DNA of 64,000 nt from the IMG/VR virus record IMGVR_UViG_3300032074_000002, positions 7,526 to 71,525 of that record. The stretch is one strand, 5' to 3'. Origin of the DNA: a virus. Lineage: Duplodnaviria > Caudoviricetes. The translations under genes and the position numbers were made by a program. Shown here in pieces: positions 4,643-64,000 of this stretch. The number at the start of each line of letters is the position of its first letter. Within the stretch, counting starts at the first letter, position 1. The notes below the pieces were generated by a model. That model made no database searches. It saw only the letters and a list, made by a program, of their open reading frames with translations, and was not told the origin of the DNA.

Positions 4643-5281
4643 ATGGCAGCTACCACGAAGTACCTGACCGGCTTCTGCTCGATCGGTCAGCACGAGGGTA
4701 CTAGACCTCGCGGCTACAATGACAAGCCACTGAAGACCTGCTATTTCTGGCAGGAATGCAGTTGCGACTGTCACATCCAGATCACCAAGATGTTCGAGAT
4801 GACTGGCCAGGAGCGCATTCCGGTCGATAACCCCGAGTACATCGTGCCGAAGCGTACGTTCTGGATACCCTCAGATGACCCTGACTATGGCATCAGTGCG
4901 CTGGCCGCACCCGAGATCACGCCGGAAGGCGTTAGTGCTACGGTCATCGCCAAGGAGGTTTCGGTCACGCCCACGGGTCGGACTTCTCGTGGCGGCCTGG
5001 AGTCCTGGGTCCAGCGCGAGTGCCTCGCGTGGTTGGTGGACCGTGATCCTGAGTACGGTTTGCCTGTGCGGATCATCAGTGAGGAGATCGGCCGCGTCGA
5101 AGCGATCAACCCTCCCAGCCAGGGTGCGATCGCAGCCGTCTTCGACAGGTGGGTCAAGTACGGTTATGCCCTGTTTGCTGACAAGCCGCGCAGGTTTACG
5201 GGCTTGACTTCGCAAGGGCAAGAGAAGGGCCTTGACTGGTGTCGAGCCAACTTCAAGGCCAAGCAGAAGAAGAATGCCTGA
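4643..5281 (+). CDS. Hypothetical protein: N-terminal Cys/His cluster, C-terminal winged-HTH-like domain
   Basis: CSIGQH..C...CSCDCH; C-terminal PSQGAIAAVFDRW motif. Confidence 0.75.
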   Translation: MAATTKYLTGFCSIGQHEGTRPRGYNDKPLKTCYFWQECSCDCHIQITKMFEMTGQERIPVDNPEYIVPKRTFWIPSDDPDYGISALAAPEITPEGVSATVIAKEVSVTPTGRTSRGGLESWVQRECLAWLVDRDPEYGLPVRIISEEIGRVEAINPPSQGAIAAVFDRWVKYGYALFADKPRRFTGLTSQGQEKGLDWCRANFKAKQKKNA

Positions 5282-54813: not shown

Positions 54814-57165
54814 TCAGGCGAAGCCGAGGGCCTGGAACTTGGCGTAGACCTGATTGGCCACGATCGTGTAGCCGGGCGCGAGCAGGTGGACGCCGTCGTA
54901 GCGCAGCGACGTGGGGACGGTGTCGTTGGCGATGTCGGCGGTGTCCTGCGTGGTCGGGGTGATCCCGGCGTCGGCGAGGCCGTGGTCGATCAGGTACCGG
55001 CGGACGTCGAAGAACCGGTCGCCGTAGATCGCGGCGAGCTGCTGGTTCAGAAAGACGATCTGGTTGTAGCCGACGCCGCCCAGGTACTCGGTGGTGAAAC
55101 CGCCGTTGTGGACGCCGATGATCACGTACTTGCCGGTGGTGCAGACGGCGACCATCGCGGCGATGTCGGCCAGCACCGTCGTCGGGTCGGCGTAGTTGTT
55201 GTGCCCGGCCCAGATCAGGAAGCTGGAGCCGGGCAGCGCCCCGCCCAGGTCGAAGGTGACCGGCACCGACCCGGCGGCGGGGACCGCGCTCCCGGCCTCG
55301 TGGCGGGTGAAGGTGCCGCCGACGTGGAACGTGCCATGCACTCCATTCAGCGAGCCGGAGAGGTCACCGCCCTGCGCCGACGGGACGCCCGTGGACGTGG
55401 TGACCGACACGACCCCGGAGGCGGGGATCGACCCGCCGGTCACGGTCGCCGTGGCGGCCACCGCACCGGCCCGGTTGGCGATCTGGGTGGAAATCTCGCC
55501 GCCGACGCCGAGGTTGCGGATCGTCTTGCCGATCAGCCCGCCGAGCACGCCCGGGTAGTTGGTGCCGCTACCGCCGGTGCCCGCGGTCAGCGAGTCGCCG
55601 AGCGCCGCCCACTGGCCGGTGTCGGTGATCGACGCGAAAGTCGTGGTCACGACGACGATGCCGGTGCCGCCGTCGCCACCCTTGCCGGAGTTGTTCCCGT
55701 TGAGCGCCGCGCCACCTCCTCCACCACCGCCGCCGGGCTTGCCGCCCTGGGCGCCGGCCTGCGCCGCGCCGGTGATCGACGCCGCACCGCCGCCACCGCC
55801 CGGGGCGGGCAGGGTGACCGACGGGGCATCGAACGTCGAGGGGGCCGCGCCGCCCACGATCCCGGCCTGCCCGGCCTGGTTCGAGGTGAACCCGGTAGCG
55901 CCCGCTCCGCCGCCGTTGGAGGCCGCGTCGGCGGAGGTGATGCCACCACCGGCGGCGCCGCCGGTGCCCATGTACTGCCCGTTGGTCTGCGACCCGGTGC
56001 CGGACGAGCCGCCGCCCGCGCCGCCGGTGGTGGAGGCCGCGCCGCCGCCGAGGGACTGGCCGATGCCGCCGACGAAGTTGTTGCCCGCGCCGCCCGCACC
56101 TGCGGCGTTCGTGCCGCCCGCCCCTGCTGCGCCACCGGCGACCGTCCGCACGTACAGGCCGAAGGAGGAGGTCCCGCCCGCCGCACCGGCGTTACCGTTG
56201 GTGTCGTTCGCGGTCACCGCCGCACCCCCGGCGCCACCGGCGCCGACGGTCACGGCCACCGTGTCCGTCAGGTCCGAGCCACGCAGCACGACGCGCGACA
56301 TGGCGCCGGACGCGCCGCCGCCGCCGCCGCAGCGCACCGTCCCGGCGGCGCCGCGACGACCGGAGCCGCCACCGCCACCGCCGGAGATGGCCACCACCTC
56401 GACCGACACCGCGCCCGCGGGCCGGGTCCAGGTGCCGGAGGTGGTGAACACCTGAATGTCGGCCGGTCGGGGGTAGTGAGCGTCATAGGCCGCCCCTAGT
56501 GTCACTCGGGCGGTACTACTACCATCCTGCAAATCCCCCACTGTGACGACATCACCAGTTGCGATACCGTCAGTGAAAGTCGCTGTTCCGTCGCCGTTGT
56601 CGGTGATCTGAGTCGTCGGCGTCCAGCCCATGTCGTAATCAGCTGCAGTCAGCTTGACAGCGACTTCACCAGGATTACCCCCAGCAGGCATCCCAATCCC
56701 AGGAGGACCAGGATCACCAGGCGGCCCAGGTAGTCCTCGCTGGATGATAATTCCGGGGCTAACCGCGACCGGCGTCAGTTCGGCCAAGTCGTAAATGAGC
56801 CCCGATTCACCCGAGAAGTCAAAGCTAGCCTTGGTGTACTTGCCGACCTTGAAGACGGCCTGCCACGTCCAAGCTTGGGTCGTGAGCCCCGAAGAGTTTG
56901 GGCAAATCAGCGTAACCCAGGAGTCACCCTGAGCGTTTCGCAGGATCCCATCGGCTTCGACAGTTGCGGTAACACTGTCCAAGAAGAGGCTAGCGTTGCC
57001 GTCAGTCGACAGAAGAGTGTTCTCAGTTACTCGGGGCGTAAAGGTAACAGTCCCGCCCACAGGGAGAATGTCCGGCAGATCGTCGATGTCGTCGGTCGCA
57101 TCTGCGACGCCCTGAAGAGTCTTCCACGTCACCCTGAAGGTGTCGAGCCCCTGGGGCAGTGCCAT
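54814..57165 (-). CDS. Tail fibre/receptor-binding protein: baseplate-anchoring N-terminus, collagen triplets, Gly-rich domain, C-terminal SGNH/GDSL hydrolase
   Basis: GLPGPPGDPGPPG; poly-G/A segment; ALGDSLT, NLGVGGE, AGHNN, DGVHL. Confidence 0.85.
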   Translation of the reverse strand: MALPQGLDTFRVTWKTLQGVADATDDIDDLPDILPVGGTVTFTPRVTENTLLSTDGNASLFLDSVTATVEADGILRNAQGDSWVTLICPNSSGLTTQAWTWQAVFKVGKYTKASFDFSGESGLIYDLAELTPVAVSPGIIIQRGLPGPPGDPGPPGIGMPAGGNPGEVAVKLTAADYDMGWTPTTQITDNGDGTATFTDGIATGDVVTVGDLQDGSSTARVTLGAAYDAHYPRPADIQVFTTSGTWTRPAGAVSVEVVAISGGGGGGSGRRGAAGTVRCGGGGGASGAMSRVVLRGSDLTDTVAVTVGAGGAGGAAVTANDTNGNAGAAGGTSSFGLYVRTVAGGAAGAGGTNAAGAGGAGNNFVGGIGQSLGGGAASTTGGAGGGSSGTGSQTNGQYMGTGGAAGGGITSADAASNGGGAGATGFTSNQAGQAGIVGGAAPSTFDAPSVTLPAPGGGGGAASITGAAQAGAQGGKPGGGGGGGGAALNGNNSGKGGDGGTGIVVVTTTFASITDTGQWAALGDSLTAGTGGSGTNYPGVLGGLIGKTIRNLGVGGEISTQIANRAGAVAATATVTGGSIPASGVVSVTTSTGVPSAQGGDLSGSLNGVHGTFHVGGTFTRHEAGSAVPAAGSVPVTFDLGGALPGSSFLIWAGHNNYADPTTVLADIAAMVAVCTTGKYVIIGVHNGGFTTEYLGGVGYNQIVFLNQQLAAIYGDRFFDVRRYLIDHGLADAGITPTTQDTADIANDTVPTSLRYDGVHLLAPGYTIVANQVYAKFQALGFA

Positions 57166-57312
57166 AACTTTGGGTCCAATCTGACTCGCGTGCGCGTGCG
57201 CTCAGGTTACTCGACCCGTCCAGCATTGGCATATGGCACAGATTAACAGCCCCAACCTGGCAATCAGCTGTGGGTGATACAGGTGAGAATCCATTTCATG
57301 ATCCACATGATC

Positions 57313-57880
57313 TTGGTCGAAGAATTGGTCAAAGAATTATGACATTGGTCGAAAAATTATTGGGGTTTCTAAACTACGTTCCTTTCAGGCTGTCCTCATC
57401 CGGCCAAAACCAGTCCTCAGGGGGTAACTTTTTGGATGATCTACAAGGGATACAGTCTGTCGGCACGCCTTGTGGTGGTTTCACCACGACTTACCTGCAT
57501 CGTCAGTGCCACTGGTACCGGGAACCGGCTATCAAGATCAAATAGTTTCTCGACCAGCCGGTCGAGAAACTCCCGATTTGGTCGAGAAACTACGGGGGCC
57601 GGTCGGGGAACGTTTCGCAACCTAGTTTCGCAACCATTTCTCGACCTCCTAAAAGCGCAGGTCAACACGGCGATTCGGGGGTTTTTTGATTGTTCGACCG
57701 AGCGTCGCTTACACACACACACACACGGGGTCGCTCACACACATCCGGGGCGTTCTTACACGGGGTCCGGCCGTTGGGGGGGATGCCGGTCGAACTAGTC
57801 TGTTTAGTCGAACAATTCGCTGACCTGCGGTTATGTTAAACGATCATGGTCGATAAACCCGTCCATCAGGTCAAAGAATA
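57313..57880. repeat. Iteron-like GGTCRA[A/G]AA repeat cluster (~13 copies, both orientations)
   Basis: TTGGTCGAAGAATT 57313, TTGGTCAAAGAATT 57325, TTGGTCGAAAAATT 57345, TAGTTTCTCGACCA 57543, GGTCGAGAAACT 57560, TTGGTCGAGAAACTA 57578, TTTCTCGACC 57637 and others. Confidence 0.75.
57711..57726. repeat. (AC)8 microsatellite
   Basis: Direct reading; followed by ACACGGGG-type repeats. Confidence 0.9.
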
Positions 57881-57901
57881 GTGAAAGAATCCTCACGTAG
57901 G

Positions 57902-57950
57902 TAAATAAATTAAAAAAATCACTCTATATATATATATAAGAGAGCTTATA
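57902..57950. other. AT-rich tract with a (TA)n run, candidate unwinding element
   Basis: TAAATAAATTAAAAAAATCACTCTATATATATATATAAGAGAG in a GC-rich genome. Confidence 0.6.
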
Positions 57951-58194
57951 CTCAAGCTCTCTGAGAGTCTGCGAGTGTTCTTGTACAGAGTCTCTCTAGT
58001 TCTTGGGAGACTAGACTCTATGACAGGGGGCTATGGATGGGGAAGATAGCTTTGCTGACCCTAGAAGGAATAAAGGGCGACAAAAAGTTTTGTGTGCGTC
58101 GCTTGTGGTCAAAGGGCGCGCGGCGTACCGGGGGTCTGGATTTTCTGACCCGGGGGCATACGCCCCGGGGGTATGCCGTTTGCATGGGGCATGC

Positions 58195-58975
58195 AAGAAC
58201 ATTCGTTCTACATGCAATTGTGTGGCGCATGCATGTCGGCCGCTATCGCACCGTTAGAACGTTTGTTCTAACGCCCGATAGGGCACGCTATCGGCACGAC
58301 ACGGCCCATTAGAACGTTTGTTCTAACGGGCATAGCTATGCGCCATGCCGCATCGCCATGCGCGGGTACCGGGCCGTTAGAACACGCGTTCTAACGGTGT
58401 ATGGTGCACCCAATTGCACGCCGCATGCATCCCGCTAGGTGTCCCATAGAACGGCCGTTCTAACGTAGGTCTACCTAGATACATGGGCCGCGCCATGACA
58501 TGTCGCCACAACCGCGCACACGCCCCGCATGGGGCATTCCTAGCTAGGTCGCACTACCCCGTTAGAACGATCGTTCTAACGCAACGTAACCGAACAAGTC
58601 ACAATCAGTAGGGGCCACAATGTCATGGCACAAATCCACAACCGACACGGGTCACGTTTGGCACGTTCTAACGGGTGCGACACGCCAATTAGACGGTACG
58701 TTCTACCCATGGCAAACGGGACGACGGAAACGGGACACACCGCACGCGGTGTAGAACGAATCGTCTAACGTGTGCTATGATCTACCCATGGACGCGCCGC
58801 ACGACTAGCGCGGGCCATACGATGTTCTAACACCTACACATGGGGTACGTTTGCGCGCCGCTAGTTCGGCACGTAGAACGCGCGTTCTAATAGCTAGCGC
58901 CATATATCAACACGCGGCGCATAGGTCCGGGCGGATACAATGCCGGACGGCAATCCATTAGAACAACCGTTCTAA
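58195..58975. repeat. Array of TAGAAC-N4-GTTCTA palindromes (7 perfect, 3 near-perfect, 2 half sites)
   Basis: Starts at 58195, 58255, 58310, 58378, 58447, 58563, (58655), 58690, 58752, (58814), 58874, 58959. Confidence 0.92.
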
Positions 58976-58985
58976 ACACGCCGGG

Positions 58986-59015
58986 TTGACACGCAAACGG
59001 ACCACATGATAGGGT
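58986..59015 (+). promoter_or_regulatory. Promoter TTGACA-N18-TAGGGT just after the last palindrome
   Basis: Direct reading. Confidence 0.55.
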
Positions 59016-59304
59016 GGTAACACACCGAAAGAACGGATCGGACGACGTAGCGGGTAGTCTATCTACCGGGCCGCGCGAGTCCTAGTGATGACATAACGGG
59101 CCATACCCATGGCCGGGCCGTGTGGTCCGTCACTAAAAGTCCGGTAGGATTCTATCGCGCCTAACATGGCCGGAATGGGCGACACTACGGGGTGGAGTCG
59201 GGGATACACGTAAGTCCCGATGCATACCCGCACGGACCCAGACCATGCTAGACTCGGTAGTGCCCGACCGGGCAATCACCCCACGAATGGGAGGCATGTA
59301 AGTC

Positions 59305-59511
59305 ATGGGCGACCTAGTTGACATCACGTCCGTTAGTCCGGGCACGATGATTCACTACGAGTACGATGCGGGTGCGGGTAAAGTCACCATAGTCGGCATC
59401 GTCGGCCCATTCATGGGCATGGCAGAATTGGGTAACCAGGGCGTCAAGATCCACACCGGATCAGGGCCGCGCTACGTGTCCCGACTCGCCCGTGTCACCG
59501 TCCTAGACTAG
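59305..59511 (+). CDS. Small early protein
   Basis: Preceded by leader module and GGGAGG. Confidence 0.7.
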   Translation: MGDLVDITSVSPGTMIHYEYDAGAGKVTIVGIVGPFMGMAELGNQGVKIHTGSGPRYVSRLARVTVLD

Positions 59512-59552
59512 TCCCCCAAGATCTAGTCGGCCCGATTGCATCGCGCCTAGAC

Positions 59553-59581
59553 TTGCCACAAGTCACGGCATAGGCTAGACT
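59553..59581 (+). promoter_or_regulatory. Promoter TTGCCA-N17-TAGACT
   Basis: Direct reading; followed by a 5' hairpin leader. Confidence 0.65.
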
Positions 59582-59627
59582 CGGTGTTGTCCGACCGACG
59601 GACATTACCCCACAATTGGGAGGAAAG

Positions 59628-60224
59628 GTGTCATACCAGCGCGCCCCGCGAAAGCCGGTAGTCACGGCTCGTGAGGGTATCAAGGTCCGCGTCATGGCCG
59701 ACATGATCCCGCTGACCGCCGAAGAGCACGGGCAGAAGTCCGCCCACGGATTCCGGCCGGTCACAATCACCGACCGGGACGGATTCCAGCGAGTCAGGGC
59801 TGGTTGGGAACTGACCGACCGCAAGACTCACGGGATCAACGTGAGCGCGCCCACCGAGGGCGCGGCCCTCCAAGAAGTCATGGAGCGAGTCACGGGCGGC
59901 TGGGTCAACTACGAGGGCCACAAAGTCCGCACCGTCTCGATGGGCGACCTCCCCCTGGGTGGACTGCCTCGACCGAAGCCCGACGATCACCCGTCGGCCA
60001 AGGAGGAGCGTAAGCTCCGTGCGGCGGCGCGGTCGGCCAGTCGCGCCGACAAGCGGGAGGACCAGTCCCAGAGGACGGGCATGAGTGACGCCTACCTCCG
60101 GGCCGTGATCCAGGCCCAGACGGGCCGAGTCTACGCCGGGCCGATCGACCGCAAGATGCGCGCCATGATCCTCGACGTGATCTCTAACCAGGAGTCCGTG
60201 CGCCGCTACACCGAGGGTAAGTGA
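59628..60224 (+). CDS. Basic early protein; start uncertain
   Basis: High GC3; GGGAGG before GTG. Confidence 0.75.
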   Translation: MSYQRAPRKPVVTAREGIKVRVMADMIPLTAEEHGQKSAHGFRPVTITDRDGFQRVRAGWELTDRKTHGINVSAPTEGAALQEVMERVTGGWVNYEGHKVRTVSMGDLPLGGLPRPKPDDHPSAKEERKLRAAARSASRADKREDQSQRTGMSDAYLRAVIQAQTGRVYAGPIDRKMRAMILDVISNQESVRRYTEGK

Positions 60225-60230
60225 GGGCAA

Positions 60231-60329
60231 GTGAGCCCCACGACTCGCCCCTGCCACCGTCACCACAAGATCATGGTCGCCTGTCCCGACTGCATGGCCG
60301 GGCTGCGCGCCAAGCTGCACCAGAAGTAG
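60231..60329 (+). CDS. 32-aa Cys/His peptide (not in track)
   Basis: SPTTRPCHRHHKIMVACPDCMAGLRAKLHQK; GAGG RBS. Confidence 0.5.
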   Translation: MSPTTRPCHRHHKIMVACPDCMAGLRAKLHQK

Positions 60330-60346
60330 TAGTAGTTCCGGCTGCA

Positions 60347-60375
60347 TTGCATCAGGCTAGACTGTGTGCTAGTCT
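60347..60375 (+). promoter_or_regulatory. Promoter TTGCAT-N17-TAGTCT with TGn extension
   Basis: Direct reading. Confidence 0.65.
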
Positions 60376-60425
60376 GGTGTTGTGCCCAGCCGGGGCACAT
60401 TACCCCAGATTACAGGGAGAGCACT

Positions 60426-60644
60426 GTGAGCGAGACTATGACCGTCACTCTGACCCGACAGCAGGCCCGGACCCTCAAGGTCGCCCTGATCTTGGCCGAG
60501 TCGGACCACACCCTCGCGGCCACGAGCCTGCCCTACGACGACCCGCAGCGCGAGGCGCACTGGGCAATCCGAGCCGACCTCCTCGAGATCTCGCGCAACC
60601 TCACCGAAGCAATGTACCCGCGCCAGATCACCGTCCCGGTCTGA
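60426..60644 (+). CDS. Small early protein
   Basis: GGGAGAGCACT-GTG leader; high GC3. Confidence 0.75.
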   Translation: MSETMTVTLTRQQARTLKVALILAESDHTLAATSLPYDDPQREAHWAIRADLLEISRNLTEAMYPRQITVPV

Positions 60645-60747
60645 CACATTCCGGCCGCCTTGTCTTTCACCTAGATTGTGCTAGAGTCTAGGTGAAGGGC
60701 TGGCCGACCGGCCAGTTCCACAATCACCCCGAACCTGGGAGAGCACT

Positions 60748-60870
60748 GTGAAGATCATCGTCAGCGAGTCCGGCGAGCAGTTCGTCGTCCCCCGCCGGAC
60801 CAAGAAGGACCGCCAGATCGAGCGGCGGCGCGCCACCCGCGAGTGGCAGCGCGAGCAGCTGTCCCTGTGA
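60748..60870 (+). CDS. 40-aa basic peptide ending in QLSL (not in track)
   Basis: Same GGGAGAGCACT-GTG leader; KIIVSESGEQFVVPRRTKKDRQIERRRATREWQREQLSL. Confidence 0.7.
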   Translation: MKIIVSESGEQFVVPRRTKKDRQIERRRATREWQREQLSL

Positions 60871-60995
60871 GCGCAGTCATCCTCCTCATGGTGGGATGGG
60901 TAGCCTTGAAGGCTGCCAACGAGCTATGGCTCGTGTGCGAGACGGTGGCACGGTGGCGACGTCACCGACTCCCCCTGTGCTCGCCGGACGAGTGA
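60867..60995 (+). CDS. 42-aa membrane peptide (not in track)
   Basis: GTGA overlap; hydrophobic N-terminus. Confidence 0.5.
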   Translation: MSAVILLMVGWVALKAANELWLVCETVARWRRHRLPLCSPDE

Positions 60996-61008
60996 GCCTG
61001 ATCACAGG

Positions 61009-61037
61009 TTGACAATGTAGGCTAGTAGAGCTACATT
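61009..61037 (+). promoter_or_regulatory. Promoter TTGACA-N17-TACATT containing the inverted repeat AATGTAG/CTACATT
   Basis: Direct reading. Confidence 0.7.
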
Positions 61038-61169
61038 CATCGCTGACACCATGGCTCCACCCGGTCCCCCATCGTGCGGAGCCATGGTGTCCCAGCCACA
61101 GCTAGGCCGCTGGCGCGTCCTTTAGGCCCGCTGGGCACATGACCCGTACCTCCGGAGAATCGAGCGCAC

Positions 61170-61514
61170 ATGCCCGAGCTACACCAGGGTGGGGTGGACT
61201 CGTACCCCGACCAATACCTGCCGTGTCGCGTGTATGGGCACGCCTGGGACCAGTCCACAGAGGACTGGCGCCCCACGAAGCAGGGTGGTAAGATCGTCGA
61301 GTGGGAGTGCTGGGTAGACTGCCTGCGTCAGTGTGGCGCCCACAAGATCTTCTACTATGACTCAAAGATCTACCGTACCCGTGCACCCAAGCTAGACTAC
61401 ACTGACGCGCCTGGGTATCTCACCGAGAAGGGCGAGAAGTTCTCAAAGCAGGAAGCGACTGCCGAAAGATTCCGCCGAAGGACTGGACGTGCCCACCTTC
61501 GCAGAGTACACTGA
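61170..61514 (+). CDS. Hypothetical Zn-binding protein (CRVYGH...CLRQC)
   Basis: GGAG RBS. Confidence 0.75.
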   Translation: MPELHQGGVDSYPDQYLPCRVYGHAWDQSTEDWRPTKQGGKIVEWECWVDCLRQCGAHKIFYYDSKIYRTRAPKLDYTDAPGYLTEKGEKFSKQEATAERFRRRTGRAHLRRVH

Positions 61515-61524
61515 AGGAGAGCAC

Positions 61525-61791
61525 ATGGAAGAACCGACAGTTCAGATCCCCATGCCCGGCATGTTATCTGAGCGGAGCTGGTCCCAGGCCGAACTGAACC
61601 TGACCGTGCGCTGCCTCCTGGAGTGGGAACAGATCGCCTGGCCACAAGCTACGGTGTTCGATGCCTACAAGGAGCTGGGCAACATGATCGAGCAGGGTGG
61701 CATCAGAGTCCTCGAGTCCGTGCGTGACACGATGCTCTGGGAGACACTGCCAGCTCTGCGGGCGACCGGCGACGGTGTGCCCGCGCCGTGA
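61525..61791 (+). CDS. Hypothetical protein
   Basis: AAGGAGAGCAC-ATG. Confidence 0.7.
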   Translation: MEEPTVQIPMPGMLSERSWSQAELNLTVRCLLEWEQIAWPQATVFDAYKELGNMIEQGGIRVLESVRDTMLWETLPALRATGDGVPAP

Positions 61792-62022
61792 TTCCACCCG
61801 TTAGGGGGTGCGAGCCCCTTGCGGAGCGATGAAACTACCGCTACAGTGATCCGTAGCGGCTAGACACCCCGTCTGACCCACCGACAGGACTGTCCCTGTG
61901 GGCGGGTCGGGCAGGATGCCTAGTCGGCTCCTACCCGTAAGATCTCGTGAAGTCCGAAAGTGTCCTGATAGACGTCCAGCAGCGACGGTGAAGGCACTGA
62001 GGGTGAATCGGGGGATACGGTG

Positions 62023-62051
62023 TTGCAGACCAGTTCACGACATGCTAGTCT
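62023..62051 (+). promoter_or_regulatory. Promoter TTGCAG-N17-TAGTCT with TGn extension
   Basis: Direct reading. Confidence 0.65.
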
Positions 62052-62119
62052 GGACACCGAACACGGAGGCAACACACACCGGCTGGCACACAGCCAATCC
62101 CCGACCGAAGGAGAGCACC

Positions 62120-63109
62120 ATGGCACGTAATAGGCAGAGCACCGACGTTCTCGATCGCGAGGACGAGAACACCGTCACCACCGAGGCCCCGGCCGAGAAC
62201 ACCGTCACCACCGAGGCCCCGGCCGAGGGTGAGGCCCCGGCTGAGGAGGAGGGTGAGCGCGACAGCTCGGGCGACACCGAGCACACGGACGGCGAGGTCC
62301 AGGTGAGCCTGGAGCCCTTCGAGCAGGCCGCGCAGGCTGCCGTCGCCCAGCGGGACACCAATACGGGCGAGCTGCCCGATGGTGCCCTGGAGCCTGTCCT
62401 CGAGCAGTACCGGGCGCTGGGTTCCACCAAGGACCGCAACCGGGCGAAGAACTACCTCAAGGACCAGATGAAGGTCGCCATGGAGGCGCTCGACCTGAGC
62501 CTGGCCCGGTCGTTCTACACCCTGTCCGAGTCCATGACCACCTCGGTGGCCAGCAAGGTGGGTACCGAGCGCAAGCCCGCTGACCCGCTGGCTGTCTGGC
62601 GTCACAACCTGCTCACCAGCCTGATCGCCTACGGCGAGCTAGCCGGGTCGGGCAAGCCCGAGGACGCCAGCGTCGAGGAGGTGCAGCAGATCGCCTCCGC
62701 GACGGAGACGATCGAGGAGATCAACTCCTACCGCACCTGGCTCGACGACGAGAACGAGGACAAGGGCGAGGCTCCGAAGGTTCGCCCGGAGGTTGTCCAC
62801 GCCTTCCGCATCGTCCGAGGCAACAAGCGTCGGGGAGTCGGCACGGGTGGCGGCGACCGCTCGCCGCACGACGGCCCGCGTCGTGACCTCGGCAAGCACA
62901 TCGCCGAGGCGTTCGCCAGTGTGGACTCGGGCACGTTCCTGAGCGTGGCCGACATCCGCAAGTTCTCCTCCGAGGAGTACGGCGACGAGCAGCCGTCGGC
63001 CGGTGCGATCTCGGCCCGCCTGTTCCCGGCCAAGGGTTCCTGCACCATCGAGGGAATCACGCCCGGAACCGGCGGCGAGAAGGGCACCAAGGGCGCCTAT
63101 AAGGACTGA
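62120..63109 (+). CDS. Acidic 329-aa early protein with C-terminal winged-HTH-like domain
   Basis: AAGGAGAGCACC-ATG; very high GC3; PSAGAISARLF motif. Confidence 0.85.
   Translation: MARNRQSTDVLDREDENTVTTEAPAENTVTTEAPAEGEAPAEEEGERDSSGDTEHTDGEVQVSLEPFEQAAQAAVAQRDTNTGELPDGALEPVLEQYRALGSTKDRNRAKNYLKDQMKVAMEALDLSLARSFYTLSESMTTSVASKVGTERKPADPLAVWRHNLLTSLIAYGELAGSGKPEDASVEEVQQIASATETIEEINSYRTWLDDENEDKGEAPKVRPEVVHAFRIVRGNKRRGVGTGGGDRSPHDGPRRDLGKHIAEAFASVDSGTFLSVADIRKFSSEEYGDEQPSAGAISARLFPAKGSCTIEGITPGTGGEKGTKGAYKD
62165..62224 (+). repeat. Perfect 30-bp tandem duplication (ENTVTTEAPA x2)
   Basis: GAGAACACCGTCACCACCGAGGCCCCGGCC twice. Confidence 0.95.
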
Positions 63110-63131
63110 TCAGTCCTAGCACCCCAGGTCA

Positions 63132-63270
63132 GCACGGGGCTGGACAACCAGCCCCGTGCCACCCTGTCGGGGCACAGTCTCATCCCCCGGACTGTGTCCC
63201 GTCAAGGTGGTTGGCCCACCTGCACCAGCAACGCAACCCCTGCCGCCTTCGGGCGTCGGGGGTTGCGTTG
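63132..63270 (+). other. Three tandem intergenic stem-loops (terminator or structured RNA)
   Basis: 12-bp stems at 63132-63159, 63168-63201 and 63229-63270, the last capped by C(UUCG)G. Confidence 0.7.
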
Positions 63271-63302
63271 TACCCTGTCCACTGTCCGAGACGAGGCCCG
63301 TT

Positions 63303-63533
63303 ATGGGAGTCATCAAGTTACTGCTCAAGCTCATCCTGTTCATCATGTGGCTGGCGTTGTCGCTGGCCTGGATGATCTTCTTCGGTGCGTTCGGCGTAGC
63401 CTGTTTCGCCAGCGTGTTCTTCGTGCCGGTAGGAGTGGCTAGCTTCGGCCTGGCCATGATGCCCCTGTTCAGTGCCCTGGCCTTCATGGGTTGGCACAAG
63501 CCTACCCAGCAGGTCATCATCGTCCAGCGGTAG
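63303..63533 (+). CDS. Small multi-pass membrane protein
   Basis: Almost entirely hydrophobic, 76 aa. Confidence 0.7.
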   Translation: MGVIKLLLKLILFIMWLALSLAWMIFFGAFGVACFASVFFVPVGVASFGLAMMPLFSALAFMGWHKPTQQVIIVQR

Positions 63534-63647
63534 GGATCGCAACAGTTCTTCTGTTGCGCGGTGTGCCGTTTATGCGGTATGCTAGTGGTACGTGGATCGC
63601 TGGCTATCGGCACACCGAGCACTGATCACCCCACCTGGGAGGTAGTA

Positions 63648-63875
63648 ATGCCACTGTACGAGTACCGTTGGCGTGAGACGCGAGAGCTGGTCACGCGCAT
63701 CTCAGTCCCAAACGACGACCTGGCTCTCGTAGCTGCGCAGACGGACGAGTTCAAGCGTCTCGCGCTGGCCGATGAGGCGCCCATCATCGCACCCGAAGTT
63801 GCACAGATCGAGGTGCTACTCGTGGGTCGAGTCGTCTCCGTCGCGGACGGGACAACCGAGGTGCGGCCCCTGTGA
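63648..63875 (+). CDS. Hypothetical early protein
   Basis: ATCACCCCACCTGGGAGG leader; promoter TTGCGC-N18-TATGCT at 63554-63583. Confidence 0.7.
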   Translation: MPLYEYRWRETRELVTRISVPNDDLALVAAQTDEFKRLALADEAPIIAPEVAQIEVLLVGRVVSVADGTTEVRPL

Positions 63876-64000
63876 CCACACCGACTAAGGTCCCGCTCAT
63901 GATGTTGGAGCTGATCCCTGACGGCTACTATGCCGTCAGGCCCGACATCGAGACGCCGCTGACCTTTGTGAGGATCAGTCGGCCTGGCCGCGGCAAGTGG
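63872..64000 (+). CDS. Hypothetical protein, truncated by window end
   Basis: GTGA overlap; open to the last base. Confidence 0.6.
   Translation, partial: MTTPTKVPLMMLELIPDGYYAVRPDIETPLTFVRISRPGRGKW

Follow-up and report, generated by a model that had tools for sequence, protein, structure and literature searches.

Repeated promoter-leader units with a C-run/Shine-Dalgarno hairpin in the putative early-gene array of an uncultured actinophage

RESULTS

Six repeated leaders lie in a putative immediate-early promoter array

The stretch of DNA analysed here (the window) comprises 64,000 nucleotides, bases 7526-71525 of the 71,525-bp IMG/VR virus record IMGVR_UViG_3300032074_000002, which is estimated to be 93% complete. 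Near the end of the window, intergenic gaps spread over 4.4 kb carry a repeated leader in which a promoter is followed by a stem-loop and then by a short C-rich box that can pair with the Shine-Dalgarno (SD) sequence of the next gene. An earlier note on this sequence had described six such leaders, and we found all of them in place on the + strand (L1 to L6; Table 1). The source is an uncultured soil actinophage, a distant relative of the Gordonia CS, Tsukamurella TIN, and Rhodococcus ReqiDocB7 phages. Its large terminase shares 50-54% identity with the enzymes of ReqiDocB7 and of Gordonia phages such as Jumbo and GMA3. The stretch from 17.7 to 57.2 kb is taken up by structural genes on the minus strand and is followed by ~2 kb of noncoding DNA, after which small plus-strand genes start at ~59.25 kb and run to the contig end. 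The layout of phage Monty is alike, with a noncoding stretch at the genome end followed by small genes and then by an AAA-ATPase gene. On the basis of their position and promoter type, the leader-bearing genes are likely to be immediate-early genes. Throughout the text, three-digit labels (L017 to L058) denote loci of relatives, and P0003 denotes the protein of gene 62120-63109.

The -10 hexamer is of the TAG(A/T)(C/G)T type in five of the six leaders. That of L6, which the earlier note had assigned to the same type, is TATGCT, and the L6 ortholog in L018 has TATGAT. A TG-N extension is present in four leaders, in agreement with its description as frequent, and a -35-like TTGNNN lies at a spacing of 16-18 bp in five. 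Judged by these elements, the promoters look SigA-type. A generic promoter scan with the Escherichia coli consensus recovered only two of the seven promoters in the array, and its overall count was no better than that of shuffles. The box reads (A/C)AT(C/T)ACCCC (AATCCCC in L5) and is located 4-8 nt 5' of GGGAG(G) or GGAG. It is found only ahead of the six early genes, all of them on the + strand and with upstream gaps of >50 nt. The seventh promoter, absent from the earlier note, has no ATYACCCC box; the gene after the one that it precedes (61525-61791) is itself preceded by GGAGAGCAC.

The leader module occurs above chance and is confined to the array

The composite pattern ACCCC-N4-8-GGGAG was found six times in the window against 1.12 ± 1.18 expected. 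None of 100 shuffles reached six, and five of the six matches are in the leader region. The box pattern ATYACCCC has eight forward matches and one reverse match (reversed-pattern control, one and none, respectively). Similarly, 7 of the 10 copies of GCTAG(A/T)(C/G)T on the + strand of the 71.5-kb genome fall in one 2.8-kb stretch inside the leader region. The sequence GGAGAGCAC, reported earlier as preceding four starts, has four copies in the 71.5 kb, directly ahead of the starts 60426, 60748, 61525, and 62120. These data confirm that the module is real.

The earlier note regarded the element as phage-wide and suggested a covariance model as a check. Such a model, built from the leaders, retrieved no further copy within the window, and inspection of all other plus-strand gene starts revealed no box. 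Thus, the element belongs to the promoter array, where it is confined to the six putative immediate-early units, and not to the phage as a whole.

Table 1 Leaders and promoters of the putative immediate-early array (positions in the window)
Feature	Span	Strand	Promoter	Stem-loop	Box	SD	Start	Gene
Leader 1	59246..59307	+	extended -10 TGC-TAGACT 59246-54 (hexamer 59249)	TGCCC-GACC-GGGCA 59261-74	AATCACCCC 59274-82	GGGAGG 59289-94	ATG 59305	59305-59511, 68 aa
Leader 2	59553..59630	+	TTGCCA-17-TAGACT 59553-81 (hexamer 59576)	TGTCCG-ACCGA-CGGACA 59588-604	CATTACCCC 59603-11	GGGAGG 59618-23	GTG 59628	59628-60224, 198 aa
Leader 3	60347..60428	+	TTGCAT-17-TAGTCT 60347-75 (hexamer 60370; second TAGACT in spacer, 60358)	TGTGCCC-AGCCG-GGGCACA 60381-99	CATTACCCC 60398-406	GGGAG + AGCAC 60415-24	GTG 60426	60426-60644, 72 aa
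Leader 4	60660..60750	+	TTGTCT-16-TAGAGT 60660-87 (hexamer 60682)	CTGGCC-GACC-GGCCAG 60700-15, extended helix from ~60692	AATCACCCC 60722-30	GGGAG + AGCAC 60737-46	GTG 60748	60748-60870, 40 aa
Leader 5	62023..62122	+	TTGCAG-17-TAGTCT, TG extension, 62023-51 (hexamer 62046)	GGCTG-GCACA-CAGCC 62081-95	AATCCCC 62096-102	GGAG + AGCAC 62110-18	ATG 62120	62120-63109 (P0003, phrog_6708)
Leader 6	63554..63650	+	TTGCGC-18-TATGCT 63554-83 (hexamer 63578)	TCGG-CACA-CCGA 63607-18, weak 4-bp stem	GATCACCCC 63624-32	GGGAGG 63637-42	ATG 63648	63648-63875, 75 aa
Seventh promoter	61009..61172	+	TTGACA-17-TACATT 61009-37	long 5' hairpin 61045-61091			ATG 61170	61170-61514

Stem-loops lie near the predicted 5' ends of the transcripts

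As proposed in the earlier note, the stem-loops vary in sequence while their pairing is kept: a C-G pair of L1 is replaced by U-A in L2, and the stems of L3 and L4 differ as well. When the best perfect stem was compared with dinucleotide shuffles of the -10-to-box segments, L1 to L5 individually gave p values of 0.01-0.06. Taken jointly, the six hairpins gave a Fisher combined p of 3e-4 for stem length and 5e-4 for minimum free energy (MFE). The hairpin of the seventh promoter, which combines a 14-bp lower stem with a conserved apical part, has a z score of -7.0. That of its L018 ortholog is -6.9, with G-C/C-G swaps that keep the helix and an apical part that is invariant.

The stem follows the -10 hexamer by 5-7 nt in L1, L2, L3, and the seventh promoter, and in L4 the extended helix begins at 4 nt. 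From the predicted transcription start sites, the transcripts would begin with at most ~2 unpaired bases, followed by a GC-rich stem of 5-14 bp. The hairpin of L1 to L3 and of the seventh promoter would therefore sit at the predicted 5' end, which is the stabiliser geometry that the earlier note had put forward. In ompA-type leaders, a 5'-terminal stem-loop protects the mRNA from 5'-end-dependent decay. The stems described here have no sequence relationship to the E. coli ompA-type stabilisers, and the 5' ends compared are predicted ones; a GC-rich stem-loop at or within ~2 nt of such an end would most likely shield the mRNA from 5'-end-dependent RNases. No T-run follows the leader stems. Because of this, and because each is preceded by its own promoter, they are not ordinary terminators.

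Could these inverted repeats act in DNA instead, as operators at +1, with ATYACCCC serving as the site of a transcription factor that controls the early promoters? The repeats do overlap the predicted +1, the classic operator position, and in L019 the palindrome TAGAAC-N4-GTTCTA occupies exactly the same slot, between the -10 and CACCCC. However, the stem half-sites differ between copies while pairing is kept, and a single dimeric repressor needs the opposite. The box, moreover, is strictly one-stranded and lies at a fixed 4-8 nt from the SD but at 24-51 nt from the -10, and the equivalent element of the relatives (see below) is also found at genes with no promoter nearby. We consider control at the DNA level unlikely.

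Most units are not separated by a terminator, which makes overlapping transcripts likely. One potential consequence is that a host endoribonuclease cuts the read-through transcripts just 5' of the C-run, so that the SD hairpin is left to protect the new 5' end. The base ahead of the C-run is invariably a purine, and mycobacterial RNase E favors cleavage before cytidines. Each unit, however, has a promoter of its own, and the RNase E motif seems to fit the C-run poorly. We regard RNA processing as a very improbable account of the element.

The C-run/SD hairpin recurs in the early arms of related phages

Homologues of P0003 (phrog_6708) were detected down to 31% identity, and alignment of the closest ones led to 31 metagenome loci and 6 IMG/VR loci. 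When IMG/VR was scanned with P0003 and with P0001 as single proteins, there were no hits. At the nucleotide level, none of 50,697 phage records matched the leader region, L029, or L054 by Megablast. The sole nucleotide similarity in the 59-64 kb region is weak (~70%), lies inside one gene, and is to the Gordonia CS phages (Monty, Hotorobo, Woes) and the Tsukamurella TIN phages.

In the closest loci, L018 (74%) and L019 (62%), the same GATCACCCC or GTCACCCC box stands before GGGAG and ATG. The orthologous comparison of L1 to L4 draws on these two loci, the nearest relatives (P0010-P0013, 68-76% identical) being represented by proteins only. Among distant uncultured phages (L029, L049, L052, and L054; 37-40% identity), A-CCCC-N3-8-GGGAG(G)-N4-9-ATG precedes many early genes. 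We listed ~55 credible A-CCCC/SD instances in uncultured relatives, and many of the units keep the order -10, hairpin, A-CCCC, SD. A CCCC within 14 nt 5' of the SD was present at 17 of 41 candidate starts in L049 and 19 of 42 in L029, compared to 0-1 in a control window 30 nt further upstream. Whole-record matches are one-stranded and clustered in the early arm (reversed-pattern controls, 0), and the 40 nt 5' of the element show more structure than do shuffles (mean z, -0.75 over 37 instances; p = 2e-4). Five actinobacterial genomes, which may not include the true host, contained 9-35 matches per 4-6.5 Mb. These counts are near those of controls, and the element is thus not a general actinobacterial signal. 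A composite search of IMG/VR for -10, box, and GGGAG returned eight loci, all of which were rejected as chance or unrelated matches (one at 49% GC, the others in different contexts).

Cultured relatives carry a second form. No CCCC form was found in Monty, Woes, TIN3, GTE7, or Katyusha (L017 and L055-L058), and the early arms of these phages contain A-CC-GNRA-GG near start codons. This form is a hairpin, N4-A-CC-GNRA-GG-N4', that encloses the ribosome-binding sites of many early genes, with the SD within the 3' arm and with the outer stems CAAC/GUUG, CACU/AGUG, CUAC/GUAG, CGAU/AUCG, and CAGC/GUUG. Selecting on nothing but the inner motif, to keep outer pairing from biasing the choice, we obtained 18 distinct instances. 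Pairing was found in 52 of the 72 outer cells against a shuffle mean of 34.8, with several pair types per position, and none of 20,000 shuffles reached 52. The outer pairs of the cultured relatives thus show real covariation, with the caveat that related phages contribute some orthologous instances.

Both the cultured and the CCCC forms have the unpaired A beside the C-run. Across the family, we define the hairpin as a C-run (2-5 C) after an unpaired A, a loop of 4-8 nt, and a G-run that starts the SD, with the start codon 4-11 nt further on; it occurs in the early arm only, on one strand, and the window has each of these parts. The public annotations shown for the records of Monty, Woes, TIN3, GTE7, and Katyusha include no such hairpin feature, and no description of the element was found in the Gordonia phage survey or in the other literature searched. 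The C-run/SD hairpin of the window is the form that this lineage has of an early-gene ribosome-site hairpin common to the Gordonia CS/Tsukamurella TIN/GTE7-like group as a whole.

A further explanation is shared descent alone, in which one promoter-leader unit was duplicated or recombined and the C-run has no function. L1 to L3 align over almost their full length, L3 and L4 share GGGAGAGCACTGTG, and other near-identical promoter-leader repeats exist in the group, for example, four in ReqiDocB7. Yet the C-run/SD arrangement recurs where the early protein is only 37-40% identical and the leaders are otherwise unalignable, and the stems have diverged by compensatory change and not by free drift. 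We give shared descent by itself little credence.

The predicted hairpin is weak, and predicted SD accessibility is like that of other genes

The earlier note had proposed that the C-run can pair with the SD and thereby sequester it. Predicted folds bear out the pairing: the MFE structures of five of the six leaders join the C-run to the three G that open the SD, and the relatives have an equivalent hairpin that covaries in the cultured phages. Sequestration fared less well. The isolated C-run/SD hairpin has a predicted energy of -4.1 to -4.8 kcal/mol in the window (L5, -2.0) and -4.0 to -6.6 in the relatives, a narrow band of -4 to -6.6 kcal/mol across eight lineages. Partition functions computed over -45 to +20 for five early leaders (the third leader, start 60426, was left out) gave SD unpaired probabilities of 0.21-0.50 (mean, 0.37), compared to a median of 0.43 in 65 other genes (one-sided Mann-Whitney p = 0.22). 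Since the SD is predicted to be no less accessible than in other genes, any effect on translation may be small, and a hairpin that is also weak does not make a convincing off-switch. Two readings of the element are left, a metastable structural feature and a recognition site.

The explanation that we favor, and to which we give about an even chance, is a constitutive cis-acting leader cassette that combines a SigA-type promoter, a 5'-terminal stabilising hairpin, and a weak SD hairpin that standardises initiation. Just past the 2-kb noncoding region, seven putative immediate-early promoters of the host SigA type would each drive one or two small genes, and six of them would share the cassette. 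Behind the stem-loop, A-CCCC located 4-8 nt 5' of GGGAG(G) would fold into a weak hairpin that buries the 5' half of the SD. Being metastable and local, this hairpin may prevent the G-rich SD from mispairing more strongly with the C-rich arms of the stem-loop before it, and any gene behind the cassette would be given the same moderate rate of initiation. The cassette would be constitutive and self-contained rather than a switch.

Besides the accessibility of the SD, several observations weigh against this explanation. In the window lineage, the C-run and the G-run are both invariant, and their pairing is therefore not provable there by covariation. Flank pairs (Y:G, U:R) form in 7-8 of 8 cases from the window lineage, and the GA-CCCC lineages do not keep them. 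The A ahead of the C-run varies hardly anywhere and is never paired, which points to sequence-specific recognition, outside a purely structural model. Among the upstream stem-loops, that of L6 is only 4 bp long (shuffle p = 0.62), and whole-leader folding z scores are weak singly (-0.8 to -1.6; L6, +0.7). Finally, the sequencing runs listed for the phage are soil-metagenome DNA only, with no RNA run. Separately, an extended anti-SD helix over all six SD bases with an A.A mismatch was considered; it fits the window lineage and not the others, and we make no general claim for it. A possible resemblance of GATCACCCC to the 3' end of 16S rRNA is likewise given no weight.

The near-invariant A also bears on an alternative in which the A-CCCC/SD hairpin (A-CC-GNRA-GG in relatives) is read by a trans-acting phage or host factor. 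Such a factor could be an RNA-binding repressor or an endoribonuclease that, at a fixed time, shuts off or spares immediate-early mRNAs. All records examined have the element in the early-gene arm only, its conservation exceeds the needs of pairing (the invariant unpaired A, the lineage flanks ATCA, GA, and TA, and the AGCAC spacer), and the hairpin is too weak to be an off-state alone. Phage T4 offers a precedent in RegA and RegB, which act on early mRNAs (PMC3014915, PMC1702504), RegA as a repressor and RegB as a nuclease at GGAG; T4 early mRNAs also have SD-masking hairpins, e.g., that of gene e (PMC3014915). As in T4, an early mRNA class would be marked at the ribosome-binding site, with GGAG in a defined context. 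The window hairpin differs in being much weaker than the T4 masking hairpins and in having no alternative promoter inside it.

However, neither RegA (PF01818) nor RegB (PF10715) had a match at E <= 1 in the 71.5-kb record (93% complete), and the early proteins (six to eight) have no recognisable function or RNA-binding domain. Any reader would also have to covary with lineage, because the flanking sequence differs between lineages. Control by a protein, by temperature, or by an antisense RNA had been suggested in the earlier note; Rfam returned no family at threshold in 57000-64000, and there was no sign of a thermometer, of antisense RNA, or of a protein dedicated to such control. We hold a trans-acting reader as a tentative possibility, clearly below an even chance. 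It is doubtful, too, that the A-C-run/SD hairpin is a tag that sets immediate-early mRNAs apart as a class in a large group of phages of the Gordonia, Tsukamurella, and Rhodococcus types. If it does, the factor may read the unpaired A together with the hairpin and so time the translation or decay of early messages.

Other features of the region and of its relatives

Ahead of the array, a near-consensus promoter, TTGACA-17-TAGGGT, lies in 58987-59245, ~290 nt 5' of the first early ATG. The region downstream of it has no open reading frame of >33 amino acids and may be a long leader or a small RNA.

L5 is orthologous to the leaders upstream of the other P0003 ('MARR...') genes, and this leader is conserved across the whole phage group (L023-L034 and L050-L052). 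Its order is GGCTTGAC-17-TAnnnT, then a hairpin whose stem covaries and whose loop, CAAUCC(C), is conserved, and finally GCCGACCCGACA-nn-GGAGG; it may be an autoregulatory or otherwise specific element. Single-sequence folds recovered the CAAUCC-loop hairpin; RNAalifold on a MAFFT alignment of this leader did not. The C-terminal 75 residues of P0003 resemble winged helix-turn-helix regulators (FUR, IclR, and WYL neighbors; TM ~0.5), a lead only, and a profile search of P0003 against PDB sequences found nothing. Genomes of Micromonospora, Blastococcus, and Rhodococcus also encode this domain. P0003 may be an early DNA-binding regulator. Its gene contains a 30-nt tandem duplication at 62166-62225.

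Past the P0003 stop codon, three consecutive GC-rich inverted repeats occupy 63130-63270. In L018, the gene beyond the same repeats is a different one and has a box-type leader, and the site therefore looks like a cassette swap point. The earlier note had suggested that the repeated leaders may also serve as homology for the shuffling of single-gene cassettes; this one anecdotal gene swap between the window and L018, beside a box-bearing leader, agrees with the suggestion, and no other case was found.

Other repeated arrangements were seen in the relatives. In L019 (1900-2830), SOS-box-like palindromes TAGAAC-N4-GTTCTA alternate with GCTAGACT -10 motifs. ReqiDocB7 (L053) has four near-identical promoter-leader cassettes, TTGACA...GCTAGACT...CCACCGAGAGTGAGGCTAGA-ATG, at 5065, 6568, 7041, and 7495, and these are a different repeated early leader in a cultured relative.

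DISCUSSION

An element of this kind is known already from other actinophages in the form of start-associated sequences (SAS), although the window does not have the SAS sequence. In Cluster K mycobacteriophages, SAS and extended SAS (ESAS) are short asymmetric motifs at the ribosome-binding sites of 11-19 nonstructural genes, 3-7 bp before the start; many accompany an inverted repeat that lies upstream, host genomes do not contain them, and they are suspected of acting in translation initiation (PMC3203893, Pope et al. 2011). The window element resembles Cluster K SAS in its ribosome-site position, its single orientation, and its association with nonstructural genes that have large upstream gaps. 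However, the 13-bp SAS consensus GGGATAGGAGCCC, from which SAS copies deviate at up to 2 positions, had 19 matches at <=3 mismatches against 20.8 expected, none of them at the six starts. A G-run and a C-run flank the SD in SAS, whereas the C-run of the window precedes the SD and pairs directly with it. Furthermore, ESAS are 17-bp imperfect inverted repeats with conserved half-sites and no RNA-pairing support, and the window stems are 4-7 bp long (14 at the seventh promoter), variable, and paired. The phage group and the host also differ between the two.

Repeated motifs have also been described in Microbacterium phages: an SAS-like GGGAAAGGACCCC in Cluster EF, an 18-bp motif in Clusters EC and EI, and 18-bp inverted repeats in Cluster EG (PMC7302621, Jacobs-Sera et al. 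2020). Like the window leaders, these are repeated, intergenic, and in one orientation at nonstructural genes of lytic actinophages, theirs lying 14-30 bp before starts, and the Cluster EC motif begins with the same TAGACT-type hexamer. Their sequence and layout are otherwise different, and neither a combination of promoter, 5' hairpin, and anti-SD nor a covarying SD hairpin is described for them.

The array as a whole is reminiscent of better-known early regions. The early promoter arrays of T7 (A1-A3) and of the SPO1 host-takeover module are tandem strong host-type promoters with small early genes near the genome end, and the window likewise has tandem host-type promoters, as predicted, driving small early genes beside the genome end. 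Arrays of the T7 and SPO1 type are not known to have a C-run/SD hairpin common to their leaders.

The function of the actinophage start-codon repeats (SAS/ESAS and the Microbacterium EC, EF, and EG motifs) has been an open question since 2011. Our analysis adds an RNA-structure signal, in the form of variable but paired stems and of supported covariation in cultured relatives, which the Cluster K ESAS lack. It also adds a design of promoter, 5' hairpin, and C-run/SD hairpin that is conserved where early proteins are 37-40% identical. The same class of element is carried by the tractable phages Monty, Woes, TIN3, and GTE7, which allows experiments. Were the hairpin a tag read by a dedicated factor, it would be an actinophage counterpart of T4 RegA/RegB assembled from unrelated parts. 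If, on the other hand, the cassette gives context-independent expression, it would be a ready-made promoter and ribosome-binding-site part for Gordonia, Rhodococcus, and Mycobacterium genetics.

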